A DNA stretch of 44,324 bases from a phage. The DNA is taken from the NCBI GenBank assembly GCA_026204955.1, contig GCA_026204955.1_4545.1; one strand, written 5' to 3'. This document shows, one piece after another, positions 15,417-44,046 of the stretch; position 1 is the first letter of the stretch; each line of letters starts with the position of its first letter. The translations under genes were made by a program, and so were the position numbers. The notes below the pieces were generated by a model that was not told where the DNA came from, searched no databases, and was given only the letters and a program-made list of their open reading frames with translations.

Positions 15417-15418
15417 TC

Positions 15419-15447
15419 AATATAATGCAACCTATATGATTATGCAA
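15419..15447 (-). promoter_or_regulatory. sigma70-like internal promoter of leftward operon
   Basis: Reverse strand -35 TTGCAT (15447-15442), 17-nt spacer, -10 TATATT (15424-15419); 17-mer identical to the site at 10196-10212. Confidence 0.45.
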
Positions 15448-15452
15448 CCAAT

Positions 15453-15776: not shown

Positions 15777-16009
15777 TTTAAATTTTCCTCATTGACCGCT
15801 ATCGCGAAGCCGCGCGGGGTGAGCGACCGGATTAATTTTGTGCGGGCTGATTTGCCTCCGAGGCGACTATACTGCTTCGAGTACCCTTTTTCAACGAAAA
15901 CAGGTTTCTTCTCTGGCATACGGAAGCCGTTGCCGGTCCATAAGCAGGTCAGCTTCGGATATGAATCGCGGGCGTTGATGTATTCCGGGAAGAGCGGGTG
16001 TACGTCATC

Positions 16010-16483: not shown

Positions 16484-17904
16484 TTGCGCGCCTTTTTAGC
16501 TTTCATGTACTCCATCAAGTCGTCTTGAATATCTCGCTTGCTGTCGCGACGCTCGGCGACCAATTCGTCCAGTGTCCCGCGCGCCTGGATAATGTAGACG
16601 AATACCGGTCGAGGGTGTCCGGCCTGCATCTGGCGAACCGGCCCGATACGTTCAACGATCTGCGAAAAGTGCTCAAAGTTCCAGGTATCGGAGAAGATTG
16701 CCAGGTGATGACCGCCGTCCTGCAAGTTAAGGCCGTGGCCTGCCGATGCCGGGTGTGCAAACATGATGGGGATCTCGCCCCTGTTCCACGCTTCCATATC
16801 CTTATTGCCCTGCTTACCCTTACCCAACGCGACGCCGTGCGGAAATTTCTTCTTAAGACGTGCCAGGTCATGCTTATACTGATACGCAACGAGCAACGGC
16901 GCGCCGTTCAACTCCTCCACGATACTTTCCAGCGCGTCCAGCTTCGCGTCGTGGATCTTCACCCACTCGTCGGTCCGTTCGCCGTCTTCGTCCACCTTAT
17001 ACACAGCGCCGGAAGCAAGCTGAAGGCACTTAATTGTCTTCGATGCCGCGTTCGCCGCTTCCACCGTTCCGCTTTCCAGTTCGGCAAATAGCTCGCTTTC
17101 AAACTGGTCGTAAATCTTGCGGGCTTTCTTCGGCAGGTCCACAACAACAGGCGTATAGATTGGCTTGTCGCACCCGAAGTATTCAGCCGCGTCAACGGTG
17201 AGGGATACATCTGACAGACGTTGTTGTATCTCTTTCTCGGAGTTCTTTAGCGGAGCGTGCTGCATAGTGAAGCTGCCAGGCTTAACAGGCTTGCTAATGA
17301 ACCAGCGGTCGGTAAATGCCTTATAGCTACTGCCGAGGCGTTCGCCACCGTCGACAAACCACGTCTGACCCCATAAGTCTTTCAGCCCGTTGGGTGCGGG
17401 TGTGCCGGTAAGGTTAATCCAGCGCTTGACGTGTTTATGTGCAATCGCTGCCATTGCGCGGGCGCGCTTGCTCCCCTGCTTGCTACGATATCCTTTCAGC
17501 TTAGTCGATTCATCGGCAACAACGACCGTAAAGGGCCACGCATCGCCGTAATAGTCGACCAGCCACTCAACAACATCGTAGTTAACACAAACCACGTTAG
17601 CGTCGCTCTCCAGCGCGGCTATGCGGTCCTTCTCTGGTCCAGTGCCGTCTACGACCAGCAGGGATGAGAACCGCCATTTCTCCTGTTCCGGGGGCCATGT
17701 ACCCGACGCAACACGCAGCGGGGCCAGCACCAGTACGCGGTCCTCATGATGGGACAGGACGCCAGTCTGGAACATTTTATTCAGCGCCCACATTGTCGCG
17801 CCGGTTTTACCGGATCCCATTGTCGCCCAGATATTACATCGCTTATGCTTGAGGATGAACGAGGTTATCAACTTCTGATATTCGCGGCGTCGGAATCGTG
17901 CCAT
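16480..17904 (-). CDS. SNF2/DEAD-like superfamily-2 helicase
   Basis: Track ORF to 17994; preferred ATG 17904. Walker A-like MGSGKTG and DExx-like VVADESTKLKG; about 474 aa; adjacent to VRR-NUC and DNA polymerase genes. Confidence 0.65.
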   Translation of the reverse strand: MARFRRREYQKLITSFILKHKRCNIWATMGSGKTGATMWALNKMFQTGVLSHHEDRVLVLAPLRVASGTWPPEQEKWRFSSLLVVDGTGPEKDRIAALESDANVVCVNYDVVEWLVDYYGDAWPFTVVVADESTKLKGYRSKQGSKRARAMAAIAHKHVKRWINLTGTPAPNGLKDLWGQTWFVDGGERLGSSYKAFTDRWFISKPVKPGSFTMQHAPLKNSEKEIQQRLSDVSLTVDAAEYFGCDKPIYTPVVVDLPKKARKIYDQFESELFAELESGTVEAANAASKTIKCLQLASGAVYKVDEDGERTDEWVKIHDAKLDALESIVEELNGAPLLVAYQYKHDLARLKKKFPHGVALGKGKQGNKDMEAWNRGEIPIMFAHPASAGHGLNLQDGGHHLAIFSDTWNFEHFSQIVERIGPVRQMQAGHPRPVFVYIIQARGTLDELVAERRDSKRDIQDDLMEYMKAKKARK

Positions 17905-17908
17905 TTCT

Positions 17909-18142
17909 TTATTCCGCCTTTTTCCAGACTTCGGTTTCACTGTTCCAGTTCCTTTTTGTAGCGTCGTAGTTGGTGGCGTGTCCGATGTGCACACCGGTAG
18001 CCCGGAAGCTCTTAAATTTTTGCCAGCACACCGTCAACGGCAGCGGATCATTCATGCCCGCGATAAACCATACGCGATCGCCCGGTTTACATTCGCCCAG
18101 CTTGGTGAGTCGGTAATGTTCTTTCATCGTCATGTCTCCCAA
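17909..18142 (-). CDS. hypothetical protein
   Basis: 77-aa ORF packed between helicase and zinc-ribbon genes. Confidence 0.3.
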   Translation of the reverse strand: MGDMTMKEHYRLTKLGECKPGDRVWFIAGMNDPLPLTVCWQKFKSFRATGVHIGHATNYDATKRNWNSETEVWKKAE

Positions 18143-18170
18143 AAATGGCGGGACAAGCCCGCCGTATTAA

Positions 18171-18344
18171 TTATTTTTGTTCTGCACGGTAGCGGCGCTG
18201 CCGTTCGCGCTCTTTCTTATTGCGGCACGATTTGCACTCTGCCCGATACCCGTCTGGACTGCGCGCAGTCTTACCGGTGTATTTGTGGAACTGGGATAGC
18301 GGCTTTACACAGCCGCAATTACTACAACGTTTTTCTTCAATCAT
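18171..18344 (-). CDS. small zinc-ribbon protein
   Basis: Internal start MIEEKRCSNCGC...CKSC gives a 57-aa protein with two CxxC pairs and a basic C-terminus; the longer track ORF overlaps the VRR-NUC gene in another frame. Confidence 0.3.
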   Translation of the reverse strand: MIEEKRCSNCGCVKPLSQFHKYTGKTARSPDGYRAECKSCRNKKERERQRRYRAEQK

Positions 18345-18384
18345 CTCTAAAATCCTCGATATGGCTAACCGGCACACTATACCG

Positions 18385-18663
18385 CTATGCGACCAATTCA
18401 GCAACCAATAAATCGCAGTCGGATATGTTGTCGATGACGCGAACGTCAGCACCGCGGCGGACCATTCGCTCATGCTCACGTACCTGGTGCGGCTTCGGTT
18501 TTCCACCGGGGCGCTTCACTTCGACGAACACTATTTTGCCGTTGATTATAATAATCAGGTCGGGCGCACCCGCGCGCCCCTCCCATGCCAGTTTTCGGCA
18601 GAATCCGCCGACCTCTTTCACCCGTTTCATAAGGTGACTTTGAATCTTGCCTTCTGGCGTCAT
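18385..18663 (-). CDS. VRR-NUC domain nuclease
   Basis: 92 aa; GAPDLIII..GKIVFVEVKRPGGK...Q..E matches the VRR-NUC PD-(D/E)XK pattern (D...E.K). Confidence 0.6.
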   Translation of the reverse strand: MTPEGKIQSHLMKRVKEVGGFCRKLAWEGRAGAPDLIIIINGKIVFVEVKRPGGKPKPHQVREHERMVRRGADVRVIDNISDCDLLVAELVA

Positions 18664-18667
18664 AATC

Positions 18668-20959
18668 TTACTTCCTATACCGGTACATAATGTCGCCTTC
18701 TGCAGCGAGTGGGAACCCTTTCGCCCATACAGGCAGGTCGCACATCAGCGCACAAAGCTCCTCGGTAGTGTAGTCGTCGGTGTCCGGCACTTCGGTGATC
18801 AATTCATCGTGCACTGACAGGACGATTTCATATCCGGCAGCTTCAACGCCAGGCATGGACCACGCGAGAATATCGCGGCACAACGCCTGTACGATGTTCT
18901 CCGTCAGTTTGCCGCCGTAGGTATACTGGAAGCCCCACTGGCGCGTCGTCTGATTCTCGCCCTGATATTTAATGCGTGTGCTGGTGCGCTTCTTGCCGGT
19001 GTCTTCGTCAATCTCGGTAGTGACAGACAGCGCGATGCCGGGGTAGCTCATGATGCGCCCCGACGGCAACTCAATTTTCAACCACCACCCCGCGGCGTCC
19101 GGGTCGTCGCGCTCCTCGTCGAAGGTTGGGTCGTGCTTCGCCTTCGTACGGACAATCTTGAGCGCTTTTCTACCGTCCGGGCGAACGTTCGCGCCAGCCC
19201 AGTATGCTTTGCCCGGATTGCGGATTGCACACAACACCGCGTCCTCAAGCTCGGCCCAAAAGGCTACCGTCTTCGGGTGCGCCTCACGCCACATACGTTT
19301 GATTGCGTCACAAGTAAGCCATACGTTTTTCGGCAGTATGTATGTTGGGCGCTCGTCTTTCTTACCTGGCTTCGGCGGGCGTTTCGCTTCGTTAATGCGG
19401 GCGTACTCATAGCCGCGTTTCGCCGCCGCCCAAATGTGATCCGGGAACGTGCCTTTCATCACGTCCGCCATAGTGTAAAGGTCGAGGCCCAGGTTTTTAG
19501 CGAACTGCAAGAACGCCGCGACTCCGCCACCATAGCCCAGCCCCAATTCGCACGCCTTACCAATCTGGCGTAAGTCCTTGCGGTTGGCTTTAATGTAGTC
19601 CGGGTCCAGGCCGAACATCTTACCGGCAGTCTCGCAATAGATATCGCGACCGGCCTTAAAGACCATTAACGCTGTTTTCTCGCCAGCGATCCAGGCAAGG
19701 CCGCGCCCTTCCACGTTGGAGTAGTCCGCTACGACAAACTTCTTGCCCTTCGCCGGAATAATGCACCCGCGAACGGTCGAGGCCGTTAGCTTCGATATGT
19801 CATACGCCCAGTGTGCGGTCCCGCGTAACAGGGAGTTGATGCCGTTGGTGAGCATGTGCGACCGGACCCAAAACGAGACGTCGCTTTCACCCTCGCGGCG
19901 TTTAATCTTCCCTTCGTGGTCGTCGCTGTACTCGCCACGCGCCAGGTTTTGAGGTTGAAAGCCTTTACCGGCCCAGCGTAGTGTGCGCTTTGCCCCACCA
20001 TACTGAAGACAACCACGGCGGCGACCATCGGCGGACAGGCCATTGACAAGCGGATTGTATTTAGTAGATGCCGTTGATGACGCACCGAGGCGCATTTCGA
20101 TAAGCGCTTTGCCTTCGTCGGGGAAATCCGGGTCTTCAAGCAGGTCGTTAAGTGTGGATTTCTGCGCGTTGTGGATCGTGAACGCCGGGGCGATATCACG
20201 CAGGATTGGCAGGAAGTCATTGCCGGTCAGCTTACCGCCAAATCGCTCCCAGGCTTCTTCCTTCAATTCTTCCTTATGCGCCTGCACCGCTTTGATCGCG
20301 GCGTTCGCCAGGTCAACGTCCACATAGAAGCCGCGGTCGTTGATCAACTGGTCAATAAGCAGGATTTCATCTTCCTTCGGAGTATTACCCCAGTCCGGTA
20401 TGCGCCAGTAGACTTCACGCATTGCGATAATATCCAGCGCGGCATAGCGCAGAAATTTGGCCCACTCTTCTGGGTGAGTCTCGCGAGTGTAGCGGCGGAT
20501 TTTGTAGGTCTTAGGGGTAGGCTTACAGAATCGTTTAATCAGCGCCTTGCCTGCCTTATCCTTCGCGTGCTCTGCGTCAACGCCCAGCACCTGGCACTGC
20601 ATATCGAGGCTGCCGGGCAGAGCGTGGCGAAAGGCCATAATCATGGTGTCTTCGATCTGGCTTACCGGCAGGTCAATACCCCACTTCTCGCGAATAACCA
20701 GGCGGTCAAACAGGAGGCCGTTAGCCATCACTATTTTTGCTTTCTTGCGGGAAACATGGCGGAGCGCCTTGCGCAGTTCACGCGGCATTGTGGGGGATTC
20801 AGTGCAATCCCATGTCTGCACGCGGCCCTCGTCGATGGCGTATGTGCAAATCATAATCTCGGTGGTTGGGTGCTCTGCGTAGGCGTACGCCCCAACTTTC
20901 TTCGGGTCCACCCCGCTAAATGTCTCGGTGTCGAGAAACAGGCGTTCGAAGTCTTTCAT
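18668..20959 (-). CDS. DNA polymerase, family A (with 3'-5' exonuclease domain)
   Basis: 763 aa; N-terminal FLDTETFS (Exo I D-x-E); motif A DYSNVEGRGLAWIAGE, motif B RQIGKACELGLGYGGG, motif C VHDE. Confidence 0.85.
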   Translation of the reverse strand: MKDFERLFLDTETFSGVDPKKVGAYAYAEHPTTEIMICTYAIDEGRVQTWDCTESPTMPRELRKALRHVSRKKAKIVMANGLLFDRLVIREKWGIDLPVSQIEDTMIMAFRHALPGSLDMQCQVLGVDAEHAKDKAGKALIKRFCKPTPKTYKIRRYTRETHPEEWAKFLRYAALDIIAMREVYWRIPDWGNTPKEDEILLIDQLINDRGFYVDVDLANAAIKAVQAHKEELKEEAWERFGGKLTGNDFLPILRDIAPAFTIHNAQKSTLNDLLEDPDFPDEGKALIEMRLGASSTASTKYNPLVNGLSADGRRRGCLQYGGAKRTLRWAGKGFQPQNLARGEYSDDHEGKIKRREGESDVSFWVRSHMLTNGINSLLRGTAHWAYDISKLTASTVRGCIIPAKGKKFVVADYSNVEGRGLAWIAGEKTALMVFKAGRDIYCETAGKMFGLDPDYIKANRKDLRQIGKACELGLGYGGGVAAFLQFAKNLGLDLYTMADVMKGTFPDHIWAAAKRGYEYARINEAKRPPKPGKKDERPTYILPKNVWLTCDAIKRMWREAHPKTVAFWAELEDAVLCAIRNPGKAYWAGANVRPDGRKALKIVRTKAKHDPTFDEERDDPDAAGWWLKIELPSGRIMSYPGIALSVTTEIDEDTGKKRTSTRIKYQGENQTTRQWGFQYTYGGKLTENIVQALCRDILAWSMPGVEAAGYEIVLSVHDELITEVPDTDDYTTEELCALMCDLPVWAKGFPLAAEGDIMYRYRK

Positions 20960-21126
20960 TGCCTTATCCTCACTACGGCGTCAGCGCTGCCGATCATGGA
21001 GAAGATGCCGTCGGACAGGGCGATTTCTTCGCCGTTGTTGCGAATCTCGGCAACTGTGAAATATTCCCCCAGTAGCTTTGACCATACTTGCATTCCGACT
21101 TTTACTTCGCTGGCTTTAATACGCAT
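20956..21126 (-). CDS. small hypothetical protein (56 aa), translationally coupled to DNA polymerase
   Basis: Not in ORF track (under 60 aa). ATG at 21126 with AGGA RBS; translation MRIKASEVKVGMQVWSKLLGEYFTVAEIRNNGEEIALSDGIFSMIGSADAVVRIRQ; stop TGA overlaps polymerase ATG (ATGA). Confidence 0.3.
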   Translation of the reverse strand: MRIKASEVKVGMQVWSKLLGEYFTVAEIRNNGEEIALSDGIFSMIGSADAVVRIRQ

Positions 21127-21142
21127 TTTTCATTGTCCTATT

Positions 21143-21164
21143 AAAAAGCCCGCATTAAGCGGGC
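21143..21164 (-). terminator. rho-independent terminator after DUF2815-like gene
   Basis: Reverse strand GCCCGC-ttaat-GCGGGC followed by T5. Confidence 0.5.
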
Positions 21165-21184
21165 TTGAATAGTGGGCTTTGCCC

Positions 21185-21967
21185 TTAACGGCGGCGACGT
21201 TTGCGTGGTGCTTCGTCTTCGTCGTCGTCCTCATCTTCGTCATCGCGTGGTTTACGACGTTTGCGAGGTTTTTCATCTTCCTCATCGTCGTCGTCATCGC
21301 GGCGCTTGGATTTCTTGGACTTGCGCGGCTTGTCATCTTCATCATCGTCATCACGACGTTTTGACTTCTTAGCCTTGCGCGGTGCTTCGTCTTCGTCGTC
21401 GTTGTCCAGGTCTTCATCGGAGCAAGAAGACCCGCCACCGCCGAAGGCTTCACCGTCATCACGGAAGCGTAAACCCAGCAAGCCAGCGCCGAGTCCCTTG
21501 CCGTTGGTGTTGTTCCACGCCCAAATATCAAGGGACACGTTGCAATAACAACCAGAGTAGATCTCCTGGCCTTCAATCTCGTCGCCGTCTATGGTCAGAC
21601 CTTGTTCAGTCTGCTTCTCGCCGAGTGACGTTTGAATGATTGGTTGTTTGAACGATTTGGCGTTGATATACAACATGCCTTCGAATTCTTCGGTTACTTC
21701 ATCGCGCTCGTCGCCGTCGCGAACTGCACATTCCTTAGAATCCTGGGCGTAGTGGCGGTCCATCCACTTATCGGCATTCTTCTCGGATTTCAGCTTGTCG
21801 GTGAGCACTGCGCGTGCTGCCGCCTCCACTTTGTCCACCTGTGGATCTTCTTTATCCAGAAGAATCACGGCACGGTATGCCGGTTTTTGTCCATCCTGTT
21901 TAGGGGTATCACGTTCCCAGATTTTCAGGAAACATACGCGCACATTTTTCAGGTTGACTTTAGCCAT
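21185..21967 (-). CDS. DUF2815-like (putative ssDNA-binding) protein with charged-repeat C-terminal tail
   Basis: Preferred ATG 21967 (GAGGAA RBS); N-terminus MAKVNLKNVRVCFLKIW resembles DUF2815 proteins (family assignment from memory). C-terminal about 70 aa are alternating acidic/basic blocks (DDEDEAPRKAKKSKRRDDDDEDDKPRKSKK...). Confidence 0.45.
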   Translation of the reverse strand: MAKVNLKNVRVCFLKIWERDTPKQDGQKPAYRAVILLDKEDPQVDKVEAAARAVLTDKLKSEKNADKWMDRHYAQDSKECAVRDGDERDEVTEEFEGMLYINAKSFKQPIIQTSLGEKQTEQGLTIDGDEIEGQEIYSGCYCNVSLDIWAWNNTNGKGLGAGLLGLRFRDDGEAFGGGGSSCSDEDLDNDDEDEAPRKAKKSKRRDDDDEDDKPRKSKKSKRRDDDDDEEDEKPRKRRKPRDDEDEDDDEDEAPRKRRRR

Positions 21968-22022
21968 TTTCCAATTCCTCATTTTCACATGTATCGGGGA
22001 TATTGTGAGCCACCCCGTCCGG

Positions 22023-22047
22023 CTTGGTTGCTAATCTACTTGGTTGC
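22023..22047. repeat. direct repeat CTTGGTTGC x2 (16-bp periodicity) upstream of DUF2815-like gene
   Basis: CTTGGTTGC at 22023-22031 and 22039-22047 in the intergenic leader. Confidence 0.45.
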
Positions 22048-22057
22048 GCCTGAGCGG

Positions 22058-22300
22058 TCAAGCGTTTTTATTAAAAAGATTTCGTGTCACGTAGTTGGTG
22101 GCGTTCTCGATCCAGCTTAACGGCGGGCGGTCGATGTTCTTCTCCACCCAGTCGACGGCAGCGTCGCGATATCCGTCGTCCAGCCAACGGGTTGGATGAC
22201 GAATCATCCAGGCCACCATCAACACGCCTTGCACGCAATGCAGGATAAAGCCCAGCGCGCCGAGCAAAAACATCAATAAGATTGCGAATACTTTATTCAT
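22058..22300 (-). CDS. small membrane protein
   Basis: 80 aa; N-terminal hydrophobic stretch FAILLMFLLGALGFILHCVQGVLMVAWMI consistent with 1-2 transmembrane helices. Confidence 0.35.
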   Translation of the reverse strand: MNKVFAILLMFLLGALGFILHCVQGVLMVAWMIRHPTRWLDDGYRDAAVDWVEKNIDRPPLSWIENATNYVTRNLFNKNA

Positions 22301-23723
22301 TACTTAAGTCCTCGTCGGTAGCTTCAGACCACGCAGGGCGCGGGTCGTCGATTGGTGCTAATACCGGTTTTGCCGGTGCGCGCGTGATTTTATCACACAA
22401 CTTCGCCCACACTTTCGGCTTCTCGTCCTTCAGTACCTTCTCGGCATCCGTAGGACTGAGCAATGTTTCTTTGTACATCACGTCGCGCTTGATCCGGGCC
22501 TTCGTGAAGATCTCAATCACTTCGCTCTCGTCCGCCCACTTGCGGATTCCTTCCTTACCGGCAACCATCTTGAGGCCCAGCGATTCGCCATCACCCGCCA
22601 TTACGGCCTTGAACACCGCGGACTCGATAGCCTTGATGTGCTGGCGCATTGCGTCAAGACCTTCATAAGCCTTGCGCAGTTCCGCGGCGGTCATTGCGCC
22701 GGGGGCAGCTTCTTTCTTACCACGCTTCGCACGTCGTGCCGCTTTGCGGGCTTCGCGGGCCATATTGCGGTCGTGATTGGCGCATTCTTCCTCTGTCGCA
22801 ATACTCACGTCGTCGCCCAGGTCTTCGTCTGTTGCCGTTGGTGGGGTCACCGTGTCGATTGCAGCCTTAGCGCGGGCGCTACACTGATCCGCAAATCTGC
22901 ACCACTGACACGCATCAACGCTCGGTCGGAAGTCGGCACGGGTGAGTCCTTTCTTACCGCGGGCATACGCTTCCAGGGCGGCGACAGCACGCTTGGACGC
23001 AAACTTAGCGAATATCTCCAGGGCTTCTACCGAAATATCCCACTCCGACGCCCCGCCGCAATATGGCTGGAAGATAACCAGGCGCACGGTCGTAATGTCG
23101 TACATAGTTTTCAGCTTGCGCAGCAGGCCCAGCGCATACAACATAAGCTGTTTGTTTTCTTTCGCCTCGACCTTATGCCGCCCGGTCTTCAGGTCGCCAA
23201 CAATCAGCATGTACGTGCCGTCGGTCTTCTTCATGACCATGACCATATCGGCAGTGCCGAACGTCTTAACCCGGTTGCCGTCGATCTCGAAGCCAGAGTG
23301 TAGGACGCGGGTAAGATCGGCGCGCATCTCAAGCTGGACAAACTCCGCCACTTCGAGGAGCGGTCGCCAGTGGTCAATGTACGCGTCGCACTGTTTCACC
23401 ATATCGTCGTTGACCAGTACGCCGCCTTTCGGTGCTTTCGGGTGCGCCTTCACTGGCCCCTTACCTTCGTTCTCGACGTAGCACCCTTTGTACGTCTTAG
23501 CGGTTATCATCTTCTCCCCGGCGATAATGCGGTTTAGCACGACTTCCGATACGGTGTGCATACTCGTACCGTTAATCGCCGCTTGCCCGGATTCGTTCGG
23601 GATATCTTTTTCTACTACCAGGGCCGCGGGACACCCCATCCATTTTTTAGCACCGGATGGCCCGAGTAATGAATGTTCCGTATTACTACCGGATTGTGTT
23701 TTGCGCTTCGGTTTAATCGCCAT
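22293..23723 (-). CDS. DUF2800-like PD-(D/E)XK (Cas4-like) nuclease
   Basis: 476 aa; Cys cluster CQWCRFADQCS (C-x2-C-x5-C) as in Cas4/RecB-type Fe-S nucleases; gene order with DUF2815-like and PolA genes typical of a conserved phage replication module. Confidence 0.5.
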   Translation of the reverse strand: MAIKPKRKTQSGSNTEHSLLGPSGAKKWMGCPAALVVEKDIPNESGQAAINGTSMHTVSEVVLNRIIAGEKMITAKTYKGCYVENEGKGPVKAHPKAPKGGVLVNDDMVKQCDAYIDHWRPLLEVAEFVQLEMRADLTRVLHSGFEIDGNRVKTFGTADMVMVMKKTDGTYMLIVGDLKTGRHKVEAKENKQLMLYALGLLRKLKTMYDITTVRLVIFQPYCGGASEWDISVEALEIFAKFASKRAVAALEAYARGKKGLTRADFRPSVDACQWCRFADQCSARAKAAIDTVTPPTATDEDLGDDVSIATEEECANHDRNMAREARKAARRAKRGKKEAAPGAMTAAELRKAYEGLDAMRQHIKAIESAVFKAVMAGDGESLGLKMVAGKEGIRKWADESEVIEIFTKARIKRDVMYKETLLSPTDAEKVLKDEKPKVWAKLCDKITRAPAKPVLAPIDDPRPAWSEATDEDLSNE

Positions 23724-23911
23724 TATTCCACCCTTGAAAATTGAGCAATGTAATAATCGTGTTCAACATTGGCCCGCTTAGCGGCATTGTTCATGGTAGC
23801 CGCCAGTCCTCGAGCTTGCATCCAGCAGCAATTCCAGTTTTGATTCATAACAATTTCTGGTTGCTCGTCGCCGGTAATACGGCAACGAAATAAAACAAAG
23901 AATATAGCCAT
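23723..23911 (-). CDS. hypothetical protein
   Basis: 62-aa ORF in leftward early operon. Confidence 0.25.
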   Translation of the reverse strand: MAIFFVLFRCRITGDEQPEIVMNQNWNCCWMQARGLAATMNNAAKRANVEHDYYIAQFSRVE

Positions 23912-24163
23912 TTATTTTGTCTCCCAGCGGTCGATTGTTCTTGCTTCGGATGCAACTGCAAAGCGAACATATTCCAGGTTGGAATCCGCCCAAATATAAA
24001 AGTCGGGATTAGTAAAGGTGGTGCGCTTGATTTGCGCGGGGGTATTGCGGCGTTTATCTATTACGGCAACTCGCGACTGAAAGCTGCCGATGCGTTCGAA
24101 TAGCCAATAATAAGGGCGTTGGTCGCGTGAATCCACCGCCTCGATTAGTGTGAAGCGTGCCAT
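23912..24163 (-). CDS. hypothetical protein
   Basis: 83-aa ORF in leftward early operon. Confidence 0.3.
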   Translation of the reverse strand: MARFTLIEAVDSRDQRPYYWLFERIGSFQSRVAVIDKRRNTPAQIKRTTFTNPDFYIWADSNLEYVRFAVASEARTIDRWETK

Positions 24164-24211
24164 TGTCTCGTCCTCTAAAAAGATGCCCGCTAATCTGCGG
24201 GCCGGAATATA

Positions 24212-24727
24212 TTAATCTTCCAGTTCGAAATAGGTTTCGACGATTTCTTTTAACTCTGTGTGGAAGTCTTCGACGTCGCCATCTTCCAGCTTGGCGATTG
24301 ATTTGATCTCGAACGATTCCAGCAGGTCGTCGAATTCGTCGTTCGCGTCGTCGTCATCACCGCCCGCGATAATCGCGGCATATTGTTTGATCTCGTCGCG
24401 CATCTCCGCCAGCGGATCGGCATCTTTCTTACCTTTGCCTTTCGCCGGTGCTTTTTTAGATTTAGCCGGTTTTTCGTCTTCGGCCTCATCGTCGTCATCT
24501 TCTACGACTTCTTTTTTGGCCTTACCCTTCGCCGGTGCTTTTTTAGCTTTAGCCGGTTTTTCGTCTTCGGCGTCATCGTCGTCATCTTCGACAACTTCTT
24601 TTTTGGCCTTAGACGGCTTCTTGTCTTCCTGTTTACCAACGGCAGCGCCAACGGTTTCATAATGCTTTGCAATGGTTTCCAGTGCTACTACGCCGCGAGT
24701 GATCAGGTTTACGATTTGCTCAAACAT
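24212..24727 (-). CDS. acidic/lysine-rich repeat protein (first gene of leftward operon)
   Basis: Preferred ATG 24727 (GGAG RBS); 171 aa with two tandem repeats KKEVVEDDDD.AEDEKPAK.KKAPAKGK and an acidic C-terminus; DNA contains about 87-bp tandem duplication. Confidence 0.45.
   Translation of the reverse strand: MFEQIVNLITRGVVALETIAKHYETVGAAVGKQEDKKPSKAKKEVVEDDDDDAEDEKPAKAKKAPAKGKAKKEVVEDDDDEAEDEKPAKSKKAPAKGKGKKDADPLAEMRDEIKQYAAIIAGGDDDDANDEFDDLLESFEIKSIAKLEDGDVEDFHTELKEIVETYFELED
24433..24607. repeat. tandem duplication (about 87 bp x2) inside acidic-repeat protein gene
   Basis: Two near-identical units each spanning ...CGCCGGTGCTTTTTTAG(A/C)TTTAGCCGGTTTTTCGTCTTCGGC...TCATCGTCGTCATCTTC...TTCTTTTTTGGC. 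Confidence 0.55.
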
Positions 24728-24923
24728 GGTATATCTCCGATTGGTTAAGTTTAGGTGTCGGCAGTTAACTTCGTCGGTGGCCTTAACATATTGCCAGGTT
24801 ACGCGTTCTCCCGTTCGGGTAGTGGACCTGGTTATATAATCACGGTTGGGAATCCTGACACTTCGATCCGGCCCCTGCGTTGCCCCTCTCCAGTTTGCGT
24901 CCTGCATCCTGTCGACGGGGGGA

Positions 24924-24953
24924 ATAATAGATTGGTTGCAGGATGGGTGTCAA
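24924..24953 (-). promoter_or_regulatory. leftward early promoter
   Basis: Reverse strand -35 TTGACA (24953-24948), 18-nt spacer, -10 TATTAT (24929-24924), upstream of acidic-repeat protein gene. Confidence 0.45.
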
Positions 24954-24964
24954 CAACTAATTTC

Positions 24965-25000
24965 AAAAAAAAAAGCGCCGAGGCAAAATGCGACGGCGCT
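24965..25000 (-). terminator. terminator-like hairpin with T10 on the reverse strand, upstream of the leftward promoter
   Basis: Reverse strand AGCGCCG-(13-nt loop)-CGGCGCT followed by T10; on the + strand the hairpin lacks a U-tract. Confidence 0.4.
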
Positions 25001-25070
25001 AACCAATAAGAGACAATGAGACGGGAATAATTATTACACGCGTGCGCGCCCGTTTCAATATCCAAAGGAT

Positions 25071-25099
25071 TTGACACCGTGCAGTTTTGGGTGTAGTTT
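25071..25099 (+). promoter_or_regulatory. rightward early promoter
   Basis: -35 TTGACA (25071-25076), 17-nt spacer, -10 TAGTTT (25094-25099), 32 nt upstream of the HTH gene. Confidence 0.4.
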
Positions 25100-25130
25100 C
25101 GTTGGTCATTAACCAACTGAGGGCAGAGCA

Positions 25131-25460
25131 ATGAATGTAAACGACGCAATCGAAATGTTAACGAAGACTGTTTGCAGTGAGACAAGCCGGTCATGGGCTT
25201 ATACAGATGCCGTGGGGGCGGTGTTATTTGAAATCGAACGTCTGCGCAGTGTCGAAAAAGAATTGCGCGCGAAGCTGGAATTACTCAACGGTACGGCGGC
25301 CAGCAAGCTGCAAAAGCACAATGAAGAAATGGAAGAATACAAAAAACAGGTTATCCGTTTGCGCGCCGAGGGAAAATCGTGGGCGATGATTGCCGAGTTG
25401 ACCGGAATTAATCAGAGCACAGTGCGCTCCTGGGTACGCAATAATAAAACTTCTAAGTAA
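25131..25460 (+). CDS. HTH-domain DNA-binding protein (putative regulator)
   Basis: 109 aa; coiled-coil-like N-terminal region; C-terminal helix-turn-helix GKSWAMIAELTGINQSTVRSWVRN; first gene of rightward operon downstream of TTGACA-17-TAGTTT promoter. Confidence 0.5.
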   Translation: MNVNDAIEMLTKTVCSETSRSWAYTDAVGAVLFEIERLRSVEKELRAKLELLNGTAASKLQKHNEEMEEYKKQVIRLRAEGKSWAMIAELTGINQSTVRSWVRNNKTSK

Positions 25461-25470: not shown

Positions 25471-27735
25471 ATGAGCTTGATTAAATTCGCTGTAACAAAA
25501 CCCGCTAAAAAAGGCGAAAAAGCCAGGGCGGAAAACTTCCAGATGACGACCGATGAGTTTTTCGAATTTATCAAAGATGCGAAAGAAATCTCCTCGGTGC
25601 ATATCAACAAGACGGAAGATAAAGCCGAGTATGCGCGCCGCAAGCGTAAGGCCGATGGCATCGTGGCGTATACCAGTGACGGATTGCGCCGCAAGACCAG
25701 TGCCGTGGACCGCTCGATCCTGTTCTTCGATATTGACCGCACCGACACCCGCACCCTGCGCCGCTGCCGTAGGGCGTTCATCGACGCGGGTCTGGAACAC
25801 GTATTTCACACCACCACCGGCGACCGCCACCCGCTGAAGAGCGGCACGCGTTGCGCCCGTTTCCTGGTGCTCACTGACAAGCCTGTACCGGCTGAAGACC
25901 TGGGCCGCGTCCAGTATGCACTATTACACCAACTGGGCCTGTCAGATGTGGACTTCGATGATTGTACGAAAGACACAAACCGCCTGATGTACCTGCCACA
26001 CCAGCAGTCCGTTATTAAGTGCCATTATGGCAAGCGCGCCAATGTGCGTCGTCTACTACGTCGGGCGGACAAGCTGGGGGTGGAAAAAGAGGAAGTACGC
26101 CGCGAGCTTACCAAGGGCGACGACGCAGTGGCAGACGGCATTCTGGACTGGTGCTTCCAGGCCGGATTCGAGGAGTTATCTTCTGGTCGCGGTTATGAAG
26201 TGCCGTGCCCGAACGAACATCTGCACAGCGGCGAAGGGTCGACGGCTATCATGGTCAAGGATGGCGAGATCCGTTTCAAGTGTATGCACACCGGCAACGA
26301 GTGTTGCTCGGAGCTAAATAGACACCAGCACCTTGCGCTACGTCTCATCGGGATACCGGACCACCTGAACGTCGAGCCGCACAACATGTCACGTAAGCAA
26401 ATCTCCGCCATCCTCCCGGGGCTGGACGACGAGGAAGTCGAATCCTTATATGAACATATTGTTGATGCGGTTGGCGACGGCGAAGAATACGGCGTGTGCA
26501 CCGATGCGGATCTGGATAACGAGCCGGTTGCGCTGTTCAGTAAGCACGACCCGATTATCGAGGGGTTGGTTAACTTTAAATCAACCTGGTATATGGCGGG
26601 TGAGTCGAACATCGGTAAATCGTTCTACGTGCTGGGGCAAATGGGTGCGGTTGCCGCGGGGATTCCGTTCGGTGGCGCGAAGGTCGTCCAGTCGCACTGC
26701 TTTTATTTCGACGCGGAAGGCGGCGAAGCCTCCAACCAGCGTAAGGAAGCCCTGCAGATCAAATATGAGCACGACCTGGACAAGCTGCACATTATCGATC
26801 TGCAATCACGCGGCTGGGATATCACCAGCAAATCAGGCTTGCGCGAAGTTATCAGCTTTATCAATCGCACAGCTAACGGGGAGCCGGTTGGCCTGGTGGC
26901 ATTCGACTCACTCAACCAGACTGTTGCGTTGCGGTCCGCCGATTCTAAACCGTTCGACGAGAACAACGCCAGCGATATGGGTGAAGTGGTCAAAGCGCTG
27001 AAGGCCATTGCGGAAAATACAGGCGGCAGTGCGGGCGTCATCCACCACCCGGCAAAAGGTGCAAACGGCAGCAGATCTCCCCGTGGGTCCGGCGCGCTGC
27101 ATGGCGCTGTCGATTCTGCGTTCTTCCTGGAGCAACCGGACGACAATCAGCCGGGCCAATTGAACCTGTATCACGAAAAGGCACGTAACGGCATCAAGCA
27201 AGCGCCGCGCGGCTTCGTCCTGCTCAAGTGCAAGGTTAAGGTGGATCTCCGCAAGTCCGAAGCGTTCGAATCACACCAGTCCACCAGCACCGGGCCTGAC
27301 TTCGGCGACGTGGTTGCCGGTTGGGACGTCAAGCCAATTGCATCCACGCCACGCGACGAGACTCTTTATCTCGTACCGGTCGCCCTGGCACCGTTCGCCA
27401 TCGAACAGGCGAAGGCCGCGGGCAAGGCCGCAGTTAAGGATGAGAACGCCGCAGGACCGCGCAACGAAAAAGAGAAAGTGCTTTATGCGGCGCTGGAAAA
27501 ACTGATGGAAGATAACCCGGACCATACCGGATTCAGTAAATCGGCAATCGTCCGCCAGGCGGGATTGGCAAAAGGTGGCACATCGACGAAGGCAATCGAC
27601 GATATGATCGAGCGCGGCGTACTCGGTTTTTATACAGACCCGCACACCGGGGCCATCTACGGGTCGTCGAATATCGTCATCAAAACGAATATACCCATCA
27701 CGCTTTCGGCGACCGATGACGACTTAAAAGATTAA
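25471..27735 (+). CDS. primase/helicase (AEP primase-polymerase-like N-terminus + P-loop ATPase C-terminus)
   Basis: 754 aa; FFDIDR resembles AEP motif I (hhhDhD); Cys/His cluster CPNEHLH...CMHTGNEC; Walker A GESNIGKS and Walker B-like LVAFDSLNQ. Confidence 0.6.
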   Translation: MSLIKFAVTKPAKKGEKARAENFQMTTDEFFEFIKDAKEISSVHINKTEDKAEYARRKRKADGIVAYTSDGLRRKTSAVDRSILFFDIDRTDTRTLRRCRRAFIDAGLEHVFHTTTGDRHPLKSGTRCARFLVLTDKPVPAEDLGRVQYALLHQLGLSDVDFDDCTKDTNRLMYLPHQQSVIKCHYGKRANVRRLLRRADKLGVEKEEVRRELTKGDDAVADGILDWCFQAGFEELSSGRGYEVPCPNEHLHSGEGSTAIMVKDGEIRFKCMHTGNECCSELNRHQHLALRLIGIPDHLNVEPHNMSRKQISAILPGLDDEEVESLYEHIVDAVGDGEEYGVCTDADLDNEPVALFSKHDPIIEGLVNFKSTWYMAGESNIGKSFYVLGQMGAVAAGIPFGGAKVVQSHCFYFDAEGGEASNQRKEALQIKYEHDLDKLHIIDLQSRGWDITSKSGLREVISFINRTANGEPVGLVAFDSLNQTVALRSADSKPFDENNASDMGEVVKALKAIAENTGGSAGVIHHPAKGANGSRSPRGSGALHGAVDSAFFLEQPDDNQPGQLNLYHEKARNGIKQAPRGFVLLKCKVKVDLRKSEAFESHQSTSTGPDFGDVVAGWDVKPIASTPRDETLYLVPVALAPFAIEQAKAAGKAAVKDENAAGPRNEKEKVLYAALEKLMEDNPDHTGFSKSAIVRQAGLAKGGTSTKAIDDMIERGVLGFYTDPHTGAIYGSSNIVIKTNIPITLSATDDDLKD

Positions 27736-27841
27736 ATTCTGCGCGTATTGGTTGCCATTTTGGGTGTTTTTAACTGGTCGCATTGGTTGCCGTGTAGTGT
27801 AAATATAGTGAATAGTTATGCAGTTTTATTGCATAAAGTAA

Positions 27842-27944
27842 GCGGGACAAAAAGCGGGACAAACAAGGGGCGGGACAAAGCGGGATAGCACCCCAGTCCC
27901 GCCCCGGATGACGCGGCCTGGAGAGGAGCGGGACAAGCGGGACA
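27842..27944. repeat. iteron array A: GCGGGACA repeats (ori-like region downstream of primase/helicase)
   Basis: GCGGGACA at 27842, 27854, 27870, 27928, 27937; variant GCGGGATA at 27880; inverted GTCCCGCC at 27896-27903. Confidence 0.6.
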
Positions 27945-28158
27945 AACCCCAGTCTTTCAGACTAGACGGGGGTCAACGGCCCCCCTCGTCTGAGACTGCA
28001 TAAAATCCGGGGATTGCAAAATACACGGCAGCATGATGCGTATTGCGGTCGTTGATGAACTAGGCAACCAATGCGGGTTGCATTATGCTGAGTGAAAAAT
28101 GCAGTTTGCAGTCACAGCAGATAGCGATCAACTTTTTCATGCGCGTGATTAATATTGG

Positions 28159-28187
28159 TTGCATTCACCCCGGCACCCTGCTATATT
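28159..28187 (+). promoter_or_regulatory. promoter for 28216 operon
   Basis: -35 TTGCAT (28159-28164) within ATTGGTTGCAT, 17-nt spacer, -10 TATATT (28182-28187); a second ATTGGTTGCA overlaps the -10 and start region. Confidence 0.45.
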
Positions 28188-28215
28188 GGTTGCACACCAA
28201 CATGAGGACTGAACA

Positions 28216-28542
28216 ATGAAAGCGATTATCTGGAATTACGCAATGGCGATGGCGAAGGCACAAGAAGCGGCGGAGTTCGCCGGTGAAGGAGCGGAAGCGG
28301 TCGAAAGACTATCGGCAGCGTGGTCCGTTGTTCGCGTCACGCAGCAGGCCATAGCCTGTATGCTTGAGCGCCGATTCGACACTATGGAAGAGATCCAGCC
28401 GTTGGCGAACGCAATCCAGGACTACGCGATGGCATTTGCCCGTGAGCGCCTGGCGTATCGCTTCGGTATCGGTGAGACGGCAGTGACAAACGTTGCCCGG
28501 ATTAAAGCCCAGCGCGAACTATTCGCCCAGCTTGCGAAATAA
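28216..28542 (+). CDS. hypothetical protein
   Basis: 108-aa ORF; GAGGA RBS; first gene after the iteron region and TTGCAT-17-TATATT promoter. Confidence 0.4.
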   Translation: MKAIIWNYAMAMAKAQEAAEFAGEGAEAVERLSAAWSVVRVTQQAIACMLERRFDTMEEIQPLANAIQDYAMAFARERLAYRFGIGETAVTNVARIKAQRELFAQLAK

Positions 28543-28551
28543 GAGGCCAAA

Positions 28552-28821
28552 ATGAACCGTAGACGCGCAAAACAGCTTTCGTGGCATATTCCCCTGCATT
28601 GCATACGAATATGGGCTGAGAATGCGAATGCGGGGGACTCTGTGTACTGGTGCTATCGCAACGACGTTAAGCCGTTGACGCAGACTCGCTACTTGCACCA
28701 GTTCGCAGCGCAACACGATTTCAGGGTGCGGACTTCCTTGCAACCAATGGGGACCCGTATTACATTACGCCGGAAGCCCGCCGTTGAGCGGGTAGGCAAA
28801 CACTGGAGACTGGCAAAATGA
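28552..28821 (+). CDS. hypothetical protein
   Basis: 89-aa ORF, basic, 9 nt after upstream stop. Confidence 0.35.
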   Translation: MNRRRAKQLSWHIPLHCIRIWAENANAGDSVYWCYRNDVKPLTQTRYLHQFAAQHDFRVRTSLQPMGTRITLRRKPAVERVGKHWRLAK

Positions 28822-28982
28822 ACAAGCAACCTGAACGCTGGCGGAGTAAGGCCACGCGACTGACTTACTTCGTGACAGAAGAAGCAAACGGCAACGTGAC
28901 TATTACACACCATAAGTGTGGTACTCGCCGCATTATCTCGCGCCTCACATTAGTTCGTAACTACAGGAGATTGACAAAATGA
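28818..28982 (+). CDS. small hypothetical protein (54 aa)
   Basis: Not in ORF track; ATG 28818 overlaps upstream stop (ATGA) and its stop overlaps the next ATG (ATGA). Confidence 0.3.
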   Translation: MNKQPERWRSKATRLTYFVTEEANGNVTITHHKCGTRRIISRLTLVRNYRRLTK

Positions 28983-29518
28983 AAATGATATTCCGCAATA
29001 AGCATAATGGGCGATTCCTTACCCCGATTGAAGTGCTGCCGAAATATGTGCGCATGTACCATGAAGCCAGCGACCGCGTATTCTGGTACAAGAAAGCCAC
29101 CCTGCATGAGCATTTGCAGGTAGTGCACCACGACGTACGAGTAGGTGATGTGCTGCGTGATGCGCGTGACGGGTCGCTGTTAGAGGTGCTCCGCGTGAGC
29201 ACGGACGGCGTTATGCTGCGCAGTGGTAAAACACAACGCGGCGTTCTGCTCACGGGCCTGGTGAATTACGCCCGCGTAGGCCGTAACTATAAACTTAAGC
29301 GCCCTGGTGTAGTGGCGAAAGAGATCACCCGTACGGAACACCCATATACCAAATACGACGAGCGCAAGGTGCGCGAGCATATCGACAACGCCAGGGCGCA
29401 AGCTGCCGCTATGATTCAGGCCGGTGATGACGCAAAGCGCTTTGGCATTGGCGTGCTTCTGGTCTACCCTGACGGCAGCATGAAGTCTACCGATCCGCGC
29501 GGGGTCGTTCTGAGATGA
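28979..29518 (+). CDS. hypothetical protein
   Basis: 179-aa ORF, translationally coupled on both sides. Confidence 0.4.
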   Translation: MKMIFRNKHNGRFLTPIEVLPKYVRMYHEASDRVFWYKKATLHEHLQVVHHDVRVGDVLRDARDGSLLEVLRVSTDGVMLRSGKTQRGVLLTGLVNYARVGRNYKLKRPGVVAKEITRTEHPYTKYDERKVREHIDNARAQAAAMIQAGDDAKRFGIGVLLVYPDGSMKSTDPRGVVLR

Positions 29519-29685
29519 ATAAATTCGATTTAGTGCGGGATAGATTAACCCGCGATTTGTACCTGGTTGTCGCCGAGACCCATTACCAGGTTAAACTGCG
29601 TAATACGGCGACTAAGCAAGCGCACTGGGCACCTCGCCATAACCCACATCTGGAGGTCGTATCTCGTGTCGGCTGCGATTCGTGA
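29515..29685 (+). CDS. small hypothetical protein (56 aa)
   Basis: Not in ORF track; ATG 29515 overlaps upstream stop (ATGA). Overlaps an alternative frame (29666-29806, GTG start with GGAGG RBS); which frame is used near 29666-29685 is unresolved. Confidence 0.25.
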   Translation: MNKFDLVRDRLTRDLYLVVAETHYQVKLRNTATKQAHWAPRHNPHLEVVSRVGCDS

Positions 29686-32850: not shown

Positions 32851-32879
32851 TTGGTGGGCTTTTTTGTGCCTGTTATAAT
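32851..32879 (+). promoter_or_regulatory. extended -10 promoter upstream of terminase genes
   Basis: TGtTATAAT (32871-32879) with -35-like TTGGTG (32851-32856) at 17-nt spacing; overlaps hairpin/T-tract after the upstream gene. Confidence 0.4.
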
Positions 32880-32949
32880 CCACCTTAGATGGCAGGGCCG
32901 TCTCCTATGTTGCCGATGGTCGGCGCATATGAACAAAAGGGCTTATATC

Positions 32950-33501
32950 ATGGCAGAAATCAAAGTTAAGGGCCGACGCGCCAAACTGGACGGACGAGTA
33001 GCAGTAACCCCGCGCCGTAAACCAGGCGAGCAAACCGAGCATACCAATCTCGGACCTGAAATAGAGTACGGAAAGCGCCGTAAAGGCGGCAAATGTGGAC
33101 GCCCTACTGACTACCGATCCGTTTACTGCGACCAGCTTCGCCGCTATTTTGCCGACGCCGACGCATGGCAGGTCAACTACTCCGATAAAGGCGCTGCGCA
33201 AGTCATCCCCCGCCACAAGATGCCGACTCTCGGTCGCTTTGCTGCGGATATTGGGGTTGGCATCGCTTGCCTGTACCGCTGGGCGCGCGCACATGAGGAG
33301 TTCGCCGAGGCGATGGCTGACGCTATGGAGCTACAGAAAACTTTCCTGATGGAAGCTGGCGGCGTTACCATAGCGGCGGGATTCGCTACGTTCCTGCTTA
33401 AAGCCAACCACGGCGTCCGCGACGATATTCCGCTGGATGATGACGAAGATGATAACGGCGACGTCGTTGTGGAGCCTACCGGCAAAGGCCAGGGTGATTA
33501 A
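32950..33501 (+). CDS. terminase small subunit (putative)
   Basis: Preferred ATG 32950 within track ORF 32851-33501; 183 aa, basic N-terminus, HTH-like LGRFAADIGVGIACLYRWA, acidic C-terminus; immediately upstream of terminase large subunit. Confidence 0.5.
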   Translation: MAEIKVKGRRAKLDGRVAVTPRRKPGEQTEHTNLGPEIEYGKRRKGGKCGRPTDYRSVYCDQLRRYFADADAWQVNYSDKGAAQVIPRHKMPTLGRFAADIGVGIACLYRWARAHEEFAEAMADAMELQKTFLMEAGGVTIAAGFATFLLKANHGVRDDIPLDDDEDDNGDVVVEPTGKGQGD

Positions 33502-37956: not shown

Positions 37957-38469
37957 CTACAAACGCATCGGCTTGATAACAAGGAAGGCACCGCCTTTGA
38001 AAAGCACACGTGTCGCCTTGTCTACTCCCTGAAATTCCAGTTTTAAGCTATCAAACTTACGGTCGAACAATTTAGCAATTTTGCAGGCGTCGGACAGGTA
38101 TTCCCCGGCAAACCCTATAGCCTCCACTTTAGCGCTGTCGAAAGACGTAACTCTACGCCAGTCTGGGAATCGGCCGTCTACGATCTCTACGGGTATGGTA
38201 CCGATTAATACGTCTTTACTATCAAAGAACGCAGCGGATGTGCCGTCTATGTTGCAGTATTCGAATTTAGTAGGTAAGCGGCCTTTAATTGCTACTATTT
38301 TACTTTCACCTTCGGGAACAACCGCGGACCCGCAGAACAAACGATGACCGTCGGTGGCCACGATGAATCCTTTCTCGTCGAAAAACACACCATTCAGATA
38401 GTACCGCACGTCATTAGTTGCGGCGCACATCATAGCGGCTTTAAGATCGGCATAGTTAACTTTAATCAT
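37957..38469 (-). CDS. truncated DNA polymerase III beta sliding-clamp (DnaN) homologue
   Basis: Preferred ATG 38469 (GAGGA RBS) within track ORF 37957-38601. Segments [41 protein letters not shown] and C-terminal LVIKPMRL recalled to match E. coli DnaN [42 protein letters not shown] and C-terminal VVMPMRL; only about 169 aa versus about 366 aa. Confidence 0.6.
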   Translation of the reverse strand: [170 protein letters not shown]

Positions 38470-38490
38470 TGTCATTTCCTCATGTTGGTA

Positions 38491-38514
38491 TGCAACCAAT
38501 ATATTGCAACCAAT
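38491..38514. repeat. tandem TGCAACCAAT x2 in divergent region between clamp-like and scaffold genes
   Basis: TGCAACCAAT at 38491-38500 and 38505-38514, adjacent to the RBS of the clamp-like gene. Confidence 0.45.
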
Positions 38515-38533
38515 CCACCAATGCAAGCAAATT

Positions 38534-44042: not shown

Positions 44043-44046
44043 TGAG

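Follow-up and report, generated by a model that had tools for sequence, protein, structure and literature searches.

Paired iteron modules and a candidate winged-helix initiator in a Dhillonvirus genome

A repeat-rich gap behind the primase/helicase gene

We analyzed a phage contig of 44,324 nt (GCA_026204955.1_4545.1 of assembly GCA_026204955.1; hereafter the window, meaning the whole stretch) and focused on the 480-bp gap at 27736-28215 that directly follows its primase/helicase gene. The original prediction, made from the letters of the window, had singled out this gap as a candidate replication origin packed with short repeats. On sequence grounds the window is a Dhillonvirus and an E. coli phage. 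The 3.6 kb around the gap matched 159 phage records, nearly all of them Escherichia/Shigella Dhillonvirus at 90-95% identity, and the repeat region was present in 159 of the 159 matched Dhillonvirus-type records, nearly all with at least two match places. The gene order agrees with that of Sodalis phage SO-1, whose GenBank record names two such stretches region A and region B and describes them as 'direct, inverted and palindromic repeat sequences'; the gap studied here corresponds to region B. Given this annotation, the bare observation of repeats is not new. In the literature, we found no paper on these repeats or on a Dhillonvirus origin. The feature is real and conserved, and its annotation is partly known already.

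The coordinates of all features are collected in Table 1. The five exact copies of the 8-bp word GCGGGACA, the variant and the inverted copy that had been noticed within about 100 bp were all recovered as iteron array B. In the window as a whole, GCGGGACA has 15 exact copies, compared to 2.10 ± 1.45 in shuffled sequences, and a count of 15 was reached in none of 100 shuffles; 11 of the 15 fall in two clusters, in direct and inverted orientation. Left of array B, the A+T-rich stretch contains an GTGAATAGTTATGCA box, which is conserved in Cornellvirus Shemara and other relatives, and a 7-nt inverted repeat, TTATGCA (27816-27822) and TGCATAA (27830-27836). The G+C-rich imperfect palindrome right of the array was likewise confirmed. 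Its folding energy as single-stranded DNA is -13.3 kcal/mol on one strand and -14.3 kcal/mol on the other (z = -3.9 each), and hairpin potential is kept in the relatives L011 (z = -4.6), L012 (z = -3.4, with another sequence), Shemara and L014. A scan with the terminator consensus found none at the hairpin. The gap also proved non-coding as originally described: its two small open reading frames (ORFs), 27748-27888 and 28085-28219, are interrupted in relatives by frameshift or stop, and Rfam and tRNA scans of the whole window returned no match.

Dhillonvirus and Cornellvirus have a further recurrent box, GTGAATAGTTAT(G/T)CA, upstream of their iterons. It is also found in the spacer of two promoter-like repeats of a Kagunavirus (all sites: 27807-27822 in the window; L004 38203-38236; L005 3959-4027; L013 3790-3815), and in some relatives it forms a near-perfect TGAATA-N2-TATTCA palindrome resembling an ArgR box.

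Table 1. Positions of the repeat modules, the proposed initiator gene and surrounding features in the window
Feature	Position	Strand	Remarks
Primase/helicase gene, proposed initiator	25471-27735	+	754 aa
Winged-helix coding segment	27448-27690	+	aa 660-740; H3 (aa 703-715) putative recognition helix
Two ATTGGTTGCC boxes, left flank of region B	27747-27755, 27782-27790	+	kept in relatives with different iterons
A+T-rich stretch, candidate DNA-unwinding element	27796-27841		76% A+T (genome 45.5%)
Iteron array B	27842-27944	+	exact GCGGGACA at 27842, 27854, 27870, 27928, 27937
Array B variant GCGGGATA	27880	+	
Array B inverted copy GCGGGACT	27895-27902	-	
G+C-rich imperfect palindrome	27950-27998		49 nt; CAGTCTTTCAGACTAGACGGGGG tcaacgg CCCCCCTCGTCTGAGACTG; hairpin possible on either strand
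Inverted ATTGGTTGC box	28064-28072	-	
Probable promoter and leader for downstream genes	28154-28215	+	-35 TTGCAT 28159-28164; -10 TATATT 28182-28187; ATG 28216
Two ATTGGTTGCA boxes and leader ACCAACATGAGGA	within 28154-28215	+	boxes at 28154 and 28185
Region A, part 1	44044-44324	+	twin module; SO-1 equivalent annotated 'region A'
Region A palindromic iteron quartet	44046-44092		two + two words, near-perfect palindrome
Region A word pair and CGGGACGTCCCG palindrome	44136-44157		
Region A TTATGCA-N7-TGCATAA	44185-44205		A+T-rich
Region A iteron array	44211-44312		
Region A first hairpin arm	44319-44324		
Region A, part 2	1-67	+	across record junction; TGATACAAT (23-31) and ACTGCATAA boxes before tape-measure ATG at 68
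Rightward gene block	25131 onward to 2710	+	25131 (small HTH gene), 25471-27735 (primase/helicase), lysis, terminase, head and tail genes, over record junction to tape-measure gene (68-2710)
Leftward gene block	12565-24907		polymerase, helicase, nuclease genes

A paralogous module in the tail operon

The second and larger cluster of GCGGGACA words lies at 44047-44312, in the gap between the tail-chaperone ORF (ending at 44043) and the ATG of the tape-measure gene. Local alignment showed about 215 nt of region B (27806-28018) to be paralogous to 44175-44324 continued by 1-66, which is the region A of SO-1. Both modules have the same layout. The A+T-rich TTATGCA-N7-TGCATAA element is followed by four direct words spaced 12, 16 and 10 nt, then an inverted word, two further direct words and CCCCAGTCT, so that either array has an A+T-rich palindrome on its left and a hairpin on its right. 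The A+T content of 44170-44210 is 71%, against 45.5% in the genome. Beyond the layout common with region B, region A carries two sub-clusters, one being the palindromic quartet. Among 16 IMG/VR contigs, 13 contain the hairpin twice, corresponding to regions A and B. By sequence comparison, the repeat gap is thus one of two paralogous modules, 16 kb apart.

The deposited record breaks inside region A. It ends in CCCCAGTCT and restarts with ATAAGG, both inside the region A hairpin, and about 44 nt (TTCAGACTAGACGGGGGTCAATGGCCCCCCTCGTCTGAGACTGA) are missing between positions 44324 and 1. The full hairpin is present in SO-1, in LM40P1 and in 13 IMG/VR contigs, and in one relative a Logan contig runs from within region A to within region B, its two ends carrying an identical 27 nt. 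The simplest explanation is that the missing stretch probably reflects an assembly collapse at the A/B repeat; alternatively, it may be a real deletion or a physical end.

Downstream of the hairpin and about 37 nt ahead of the tape-measure ATG, the extended -10-like TGATACAAT is kept in all Dhillonvirus copies of region A as well as in a phage of the GTGTGGCA word class described below, where GCTGATACAAT is likewise kept. Given the conservation of TGATACAAT, the distal tail genes may have an internal promoter here. In phage TH11 (L008, MT446389.1, an UNVERIFIED record), region A occurs in tandem at 15427-15674 and 15942-16189, 515 nt apart, either as a real module duplication or as an assembly artefact.

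The repeated word is exchanged on a constant scaffold

Full-length homologues of the primase/helicase were traced to their own contigs and the 3' flanks of their genes were compared. In every relative with at least 44% identity, a non-coding stretch of 430-650 nt follows the stop codon. The scaffold of this stretch is kept, with regulator boxes, a GAATAGTTATGCA-like box, direct and inverted repeats and then a long hairpin, and the repeated word differs. The word GCGGGACA is found in the window and in L010 and L018 (68-69% identity), GTGTGGCA in L011 and L017, GTGTGCCA in L012, GGTGCCA in L013 and L019, and GGGGATC in L015. A word of TTGCGAGT type occurs in L014 and L016, while Cornellvirus Shemara and GRNsp27 use GGGGGAGA, which forms the sole cluster in the Shemara genome. 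As far as sequences can tell, a word that is swapped while its scaffold stays constant marks a binding site co-evolving with a specificity determinant.

The same word was found in regions A and B, 16-25 kb apart, in three word classes. Dhillonviruses carry GCGGGACA in both. Similarly, Logan contig ERR11172925_9173 has four GTGTGGCA words and a hairpin just upstream of its tape-measure ATG (L147 1-215), and the word of its region B is identical. In ERR9725288_2782, with a primase/helicase of 48% identity, CTCGCAA/TTGCGAGT words and a hairpin are found in the 211 nt that separate the DUF1799 chaperone gene from the tape-measure gene, and they match region B of this contig. Because the two regions are 16-25 kb apart, linkage cannot explain this concordance, which is the strongest result of our sequence comparison. 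Judging from it, a single reader probably serves both A and B, and gene conversion between the two copies may help to keep them alike.

This concordance also bears on the nature of the module itself. It could be a duplicated or selfish repeat that has no part in phage replication, for instance a small mobile or recombination element, and the two paralogous copies, the tandem region A of TH11 and the breakage of assemblies at these sites would fit. However, the two modules hold their positions throughout a clade in which primase/helicase identity drops to 48%, changes of the word affect A and B alike and the internal spacing is conserved, so we regard this explanation as very unlikely. It is equally hard to credit that the clusters are pac sites bound by the small terminase. 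Some pac sites do hold repeated short words and the deposited record starts and stops inside region A, but the small terminase gene lies 4.6 kb off (32851-33501) and its product does not follow the word class, being 53% identical to that of the same-word L010 and 60% to that of the different-word L012. There are, moreover, two sites per genome, and assembly collapse accounts better for the break in the record, as it does for the Logan contig with 27 nt common to both ends.

More distant homologues from Kagunavirus and Jerseyvirus (28-35% identity) lack the non-coding region and have a reverse-strand helix-turn-helix (HTH) repressor gene instead; no iteron arrays were found near the gene. A scan of viral_contigs with GTGTGGCANGTGTGGCA gave 98 unrelated matches and no relative. 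Cornellviruses have region B only, and their chaperone gene abuts the tape-measure gene.

Two further observations concern the interior of the scaffold. A GATTTATAAGGAG box is conserved between the inverted and distal iterons in L011 (6705-6720), L012 (2883-2898), L013 (3862-3876), L015 (3995-4010) and L019 (2801-2815 and 2936-2950), and at its position Dhillonviruses have a G+C-rich spacer. The box may be a bending site for a host factor; the window itself holds no strict match to the IHF consensus. L010 has a (CACACG)n microsatellite in the right half of region B (12595-12625) that is absent from the window.

The C-terminal winged helix tracks the word

The protein encoded next to region B comprises several domains. 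Residues 1-345 show an archaeo-eukaryotic primase (AEP) type fold with a Cys/His cluster. The AlphaFold2 model of this N-terminal part has a mean predicted local distance difference test (pLDDT) score of 86.8, and its top PDB fold match is the AEP domain of cyanophage S-2L PrimPol (6zp9, E = 3.8e-5), followed by LigD polymerase and Prim-PolC. Residues D87, D89 and H120 are invariant in the alignment and compatible with AEP motifs. The helicase core (aa 357-531) matches Pfam AAA_25, the RepA/DnaB-like family (E = 6.4e-19), and some sources name the homologues 'helicase RepA family protein'; sequence and profile searches of PDB gave as their sole match RSF1010 RepA (1g8y), which is weak (E = 0.09-0.47). 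The C-terminal domain is modelled as a winged helix (pLDDT 81-92), with H1 at 666-681, H2 at 690-697, H3 at 703-715 and the wing at 718-737, and its fold matches include the winged-helix domains of the Cdc6/Orc1 origin-recognition proteins.

We compared this protein within and between word classes in a small sample of 8 proteins containing three distant same-word pairs (win-P0012, win-P0010 and P0009-P0013). Distant same-word pairs are 69.6% identical overall, compared to 70.2% for different-word pairs. Residues from about 674 to 718, covering H2 and H3, are about 20 points more alike in the same-word pairs, and the next best segment reaches 9 points. In this alignment, the winged helix is the only segment of the primase/helicase that tracks the repeated word. 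When the word was predicted from the helix sequence prior to fetching three more contigs, the prediction was correct in all three, two of which concern close relatives (87-88% identity). The original prediction had seen no obvious iteron-binding initiator in the window, a view that the winged helix now makes difficult to maintain. Taken together, sequence and model indicate that the primase/helicase is itself probably the initiator, by way of its C-terminal domain.

Other proteins could read the iterons, or another surface of the primase/helicase could do so, leaving the winged helix to non-specific clamping or partner binding at modules that would still be origins. The coding segment of the helix lies about 150 bp from array B and its covariation with the word is explicable by this physical linkage, in that both could be co-inherited in mosaic recombination. 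In addition, the winged helix of pRN1 ORF904 showed no detectable sequence-specific binding in vitro (PMC2777425), and relatives were compared only over about 10-20 kb around the gene, so that the reader may be encoded elsewhere in the genome. The candidates in the neighborhood nevertheless fare poorly. The small HTH_23 protein (25131-25460), which had been put forward for footprinting, is the sole other conserved DNA-binding neighbor; its HTH, SWAMIAExTGINxSTVRSWVRN, is identical in phages with three different words and, being invariant while the iterons differ, makes it an unlikely reader. The genes at 28216-29685 and 23723-24163 have no homologue in the same-word L010, and for the 231-aa ORF at 24212-24907 the L010 match is limited to 12% of the length, the different-word L011 matching better. 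Since no other segment of the primase/helicase tracks the word either, we consider a different reader unlikely and retain the winged helix as the preferred one.

Transcription signals share the gap

The other motif noted in the gap, ATTGGTTGC, is indeed present there in five copies, at 27747, 27782, 28154 and 28185 on the plus strand and 28064 on the minus strand, but it is no feature of the origin in particular. The window holds 13 exact copies where 0.49 are expected. Sites of the form ATTGGTTGC(A/C) occur at 10198, 13759/13770, 15427/15444, 18389/18401, 24931, 28740 and 38492/38506 besides the five in 27747-28193; they often come in pairs and at promoter-like positions, oriented like the gene that follows, and remain constant where the iterons differ. 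By their distribution, these boxes are a genome-wide motif that is not specific to the origin, and the HTH_23 protein is a candidate reader of the equally invariant box.

Similarly, the promoter TTGCAT-17-TATATT had been correctly located (28159-28187) but agrees with the sigma-70 consensus at only 8 of 12 positions and falls under the threshold of our sigma-70 consensus scan, which returned no promoter. An identical TTGCAT-N17-TATATTGGTTGC is found once more at 38492-38526 on the minus strand, with 0.02 expected for this 35-nt pattern. The larger promoter-like unit, TTGCAT-N17-TATATTGGTTGCA, also occurs twice, at 28159-28215 (+) and 38460-38526 (-), each time followed by a near-identical leader ACCAACATGAGGA...ATG. 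The first copy precedes the 28216 gene and the second a reverse-strand gene among the head genes, which SO-1 annotates as RusA-like. Immediately after region B, the window has five small genes (28216-29685) with no detectable homologue in L010, L011 or L012 (66-70% identity), a variable accessory-gene slot between conserved primase/helicase and lysis genes.

Such signals raise the question of whether the iteron modules are themselves transcription-control elements, either operator arrays or insulators, to which a phage factor would bind and which would gate the promoters downstream, for the tape-measure and tail genes after region A and for the 28216 set after region B. Each module does lie between a gene end and a promoter-like element (TGATACAAT and TTGCAT-17-TATATT, respectively), and the gaps also hold the transcription-linked ATTGGTTGC boxes. 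However, the promoters and boxes stay constant while the word swaps, each array comes with an A+T-rich stretch and a long hairpin, as is usual in origins, and the specificity domain linked to the word belongs to a replication enzyme. Furthermore, the promoter region of the primase/helicase gene (24907-25131) contains no copy of GCGGGACA. A role confined to transcription therefore appears improbable to us.

A proposed origin pair

After comparison with relatives, a replication origin remains the best-supported reading of the gap, although still an inferred one, and the original picture of a single origin was incomplete given the two paralogous modules. From the sequence features, we judge it reasonably likely that this Dhillonvirus has two iteron-type origin modules and a self-contained initiator, the core of the gap (approximately 27796-27998) being one of the two modules. 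The fold, adjacency and covariation suggest that the C-terminal winged helix of the primase/helicase would bind the 8-bp GCGGGACA words, arranged as three to four direct copies, one inverted and two more direct. By analogy, cooperative binding would assemble the RepA-type helicase ring and open the adjoining 76% A+T stretch. More speculatively, unwinding could let the 49-nt palindrome extrude as hairpins on both strands, at which the AEP primase of the same polypeptide would prime, a step modelled on the ssi hairpins of IncQ oriV and the pRN1 stem-loop. Region A, 16 kb away with the same word and spacing, may be another origin, or an enhancer that acts in cis by looping to the first, like P4 crr. 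The flanking ATTGGTTGC boxes and TTGCAT-17-TATATT would then be ordinary transcription signals lying in the same intergenic gap.

Several points weigh against this proposal. Origin activity is inferred, as are iteron binding, melting and priming; the observations comprise the layout and paralogy of the modules, the exchange of words, its concordance between A and B and the domain folds. The covariation comes from few proteins, most of its correct predictions were made on close relatives, and linkage to array B could account for it as outlined above. The reader may also be encoded farther away. An origin module within a tail operon is unusual, and Cornellviruses do with region B alone. Neither a DnaA box nor an IHF consensus site was found in region A or B. 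Finally, cumulative GC and AT skew turns at 24.7 kb and at neither module; this is the point of divergent transcription, and skew is therefore uninformative for mapping the origin here.

A broader hypothesis, which we advance tentatively and consider somewhat doubtful, extends the proposal to a clade of E. coli/Salmonella siphophages comprising Dhillonvirus, Cornellvirus and uncultured relatives. These would have modular origins read by a combined AEP primase, RepA-type helicase and winged helix, with the 8-bp word rewritten at least six times on a fixed scaffold. In Dhillonvirus-like phages, the second copy in the tail operon would be required in cis, as a second origin or crr-like enhancer, thus coupling replication to the late region, and the natural pairs of word and helix would amount to a readable recognition code. 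The combination of AEP primase, RepA-type helicase and winged helix may not have been described before as an origin-recognizing enzyme.

Dhillonviruses are common coliphages, represented in the BASEL collection and in studies of defence systems, and their origin and initiator were never defined. If true, our reading names the initiator, maps two origin modules and explains why assemblies of these phages, the window included, break at the A/B repeat. It would also provide context for the Dhillonvirus HK578, whose OLD-escape mutations were mapped to its helicase-primase and the promoter of that gene in a 2026 preprint, which interprets them as affecting replication initiation and does not locate an origin (bioRxiv 10.64898/2026.07.10.737580). 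Swapped iteron words on a constant scaffold constitute a natural experiment on winged-helix specificity and a possible source of orthogonal replicon parts in the form of origin/initiator pairs. Nothing is overturned, as iterons beside a replication gene are a classical layout.

Comparison with known systems

Two separated iteron clusters are not without precedent. The satellite phage P4 is said to have, from the work of Ziegelin, Calendar and Lanka, an ori and a crr with type I iterons, that is, short direct and inverted iterons in two separated clusters, one of them near the initiator gene. The two clusters of the window, with one word that co-varies across three classes, can be likened to P4 ori and crr, and binding of both by one protein would follow the same pattern. 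The repeat words are unrelated to those of P4, and the second cluster of the window lies inside the tail operon, 16 kb away. In Bacillus phage SPP1, Missich et al. (1997) reportedly found that G38P binds two distant clusters, oriL and oriR, one near or in its gene and the other in the late region. Unlike the window protein, G38P organises the replisome and contains neither a primase nor a helicase domain, and both host and sequences are unrelated.

The oriV of the IncQ plasmid RSF1010 has iterons beside an A+T-rich stretch and a large palindrome, whose strands give the primase-specific hairpins ssiA and ssiB. The window resembles it in having iterons beside an A+T-rich stretch and a large palindrome, and may also resemble it in a putative RepA-type helicase, assigned through Pfam AAA_25 together with the weak match to RSF1010 RepA itself. 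In contrast, RSF1010 divides the work among three separate proteins, RepA, RepB' and RepC, and has a single origin with 20-bp iterons read by RepC. There was no separate RepC-like candidate among the neighboring genes of the window, where no search aimed at RepC homologues was made. In lambdoid phages, the iterons of ori-lambda are tightly linked to the DNA-binding domain of the initiator O, both swap together, and an A+T-rich region adjoins. There, however, the O gene itself contains the iterons, its product lacks enzymatic domains, host DnaB is recruited through P and the origin is single. Origin iterons of the lambda type are described in bioRxiv 10.64898/2026.07.10.737580.

The closest parallels are proteins that unite primase, helicase and winged helix in one chain, namely P4 alpha (DnaG-type primase, superfamily 3 (SF3) helicase and winged helix, PDB 1ka8) and ORF904 of the archaeal plasmid pRN1 (AEP, SF3 helicase and winged helix) (PMC2777425). 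Such polypeptides act, or are proposed to act, as autonomous initiators in both systems (PMC2777425, PMC4234260). In P4 alpha, the origin-binding domain is a C-terminal winged helix, joined in one polypeptide to a primase and a hexameric helicase (PMC2777425), and the window protein likewise has a modelled C-terminal winged helix. It differs in having an AEP fold and AAA_25 (RepA/DnaB-like) in place of a DnaG-type primase and SF3 helicase: the Pfam search of the primase/helicase gave AAA_25 only, with no SF3 helicase of D5_N or Pox_D5 type, and the top fold of the N-terminal model was AEP PrimPol and not a DnaG/Toprim-type primase. With pRN1 ORF904 it shares an AEP prim/pol, a helicase and a winged helix in one protein, as well as a stem-loop just downstream of the gene. 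In pRN1 that stem-loop, immediately downstream of the replication gene and conserved in structure over sequence, is an essential origin element, and the same was suggested for phage BIP-1 (PMC4234260). Unlike the window, pRN1 combines an SF3 helicase with a single site, where neither iterons nor specific binding were detected. As the window protein lacks the SF3 helicase of both families and the DnaG-type primase of P4 alpha, it is an analogue and not a member of either. The best reading by analogy is therefore of an iteron origin pair that would work like P4 alpha with ori and crr, or like pRN1 ORF904, built from different domain families.

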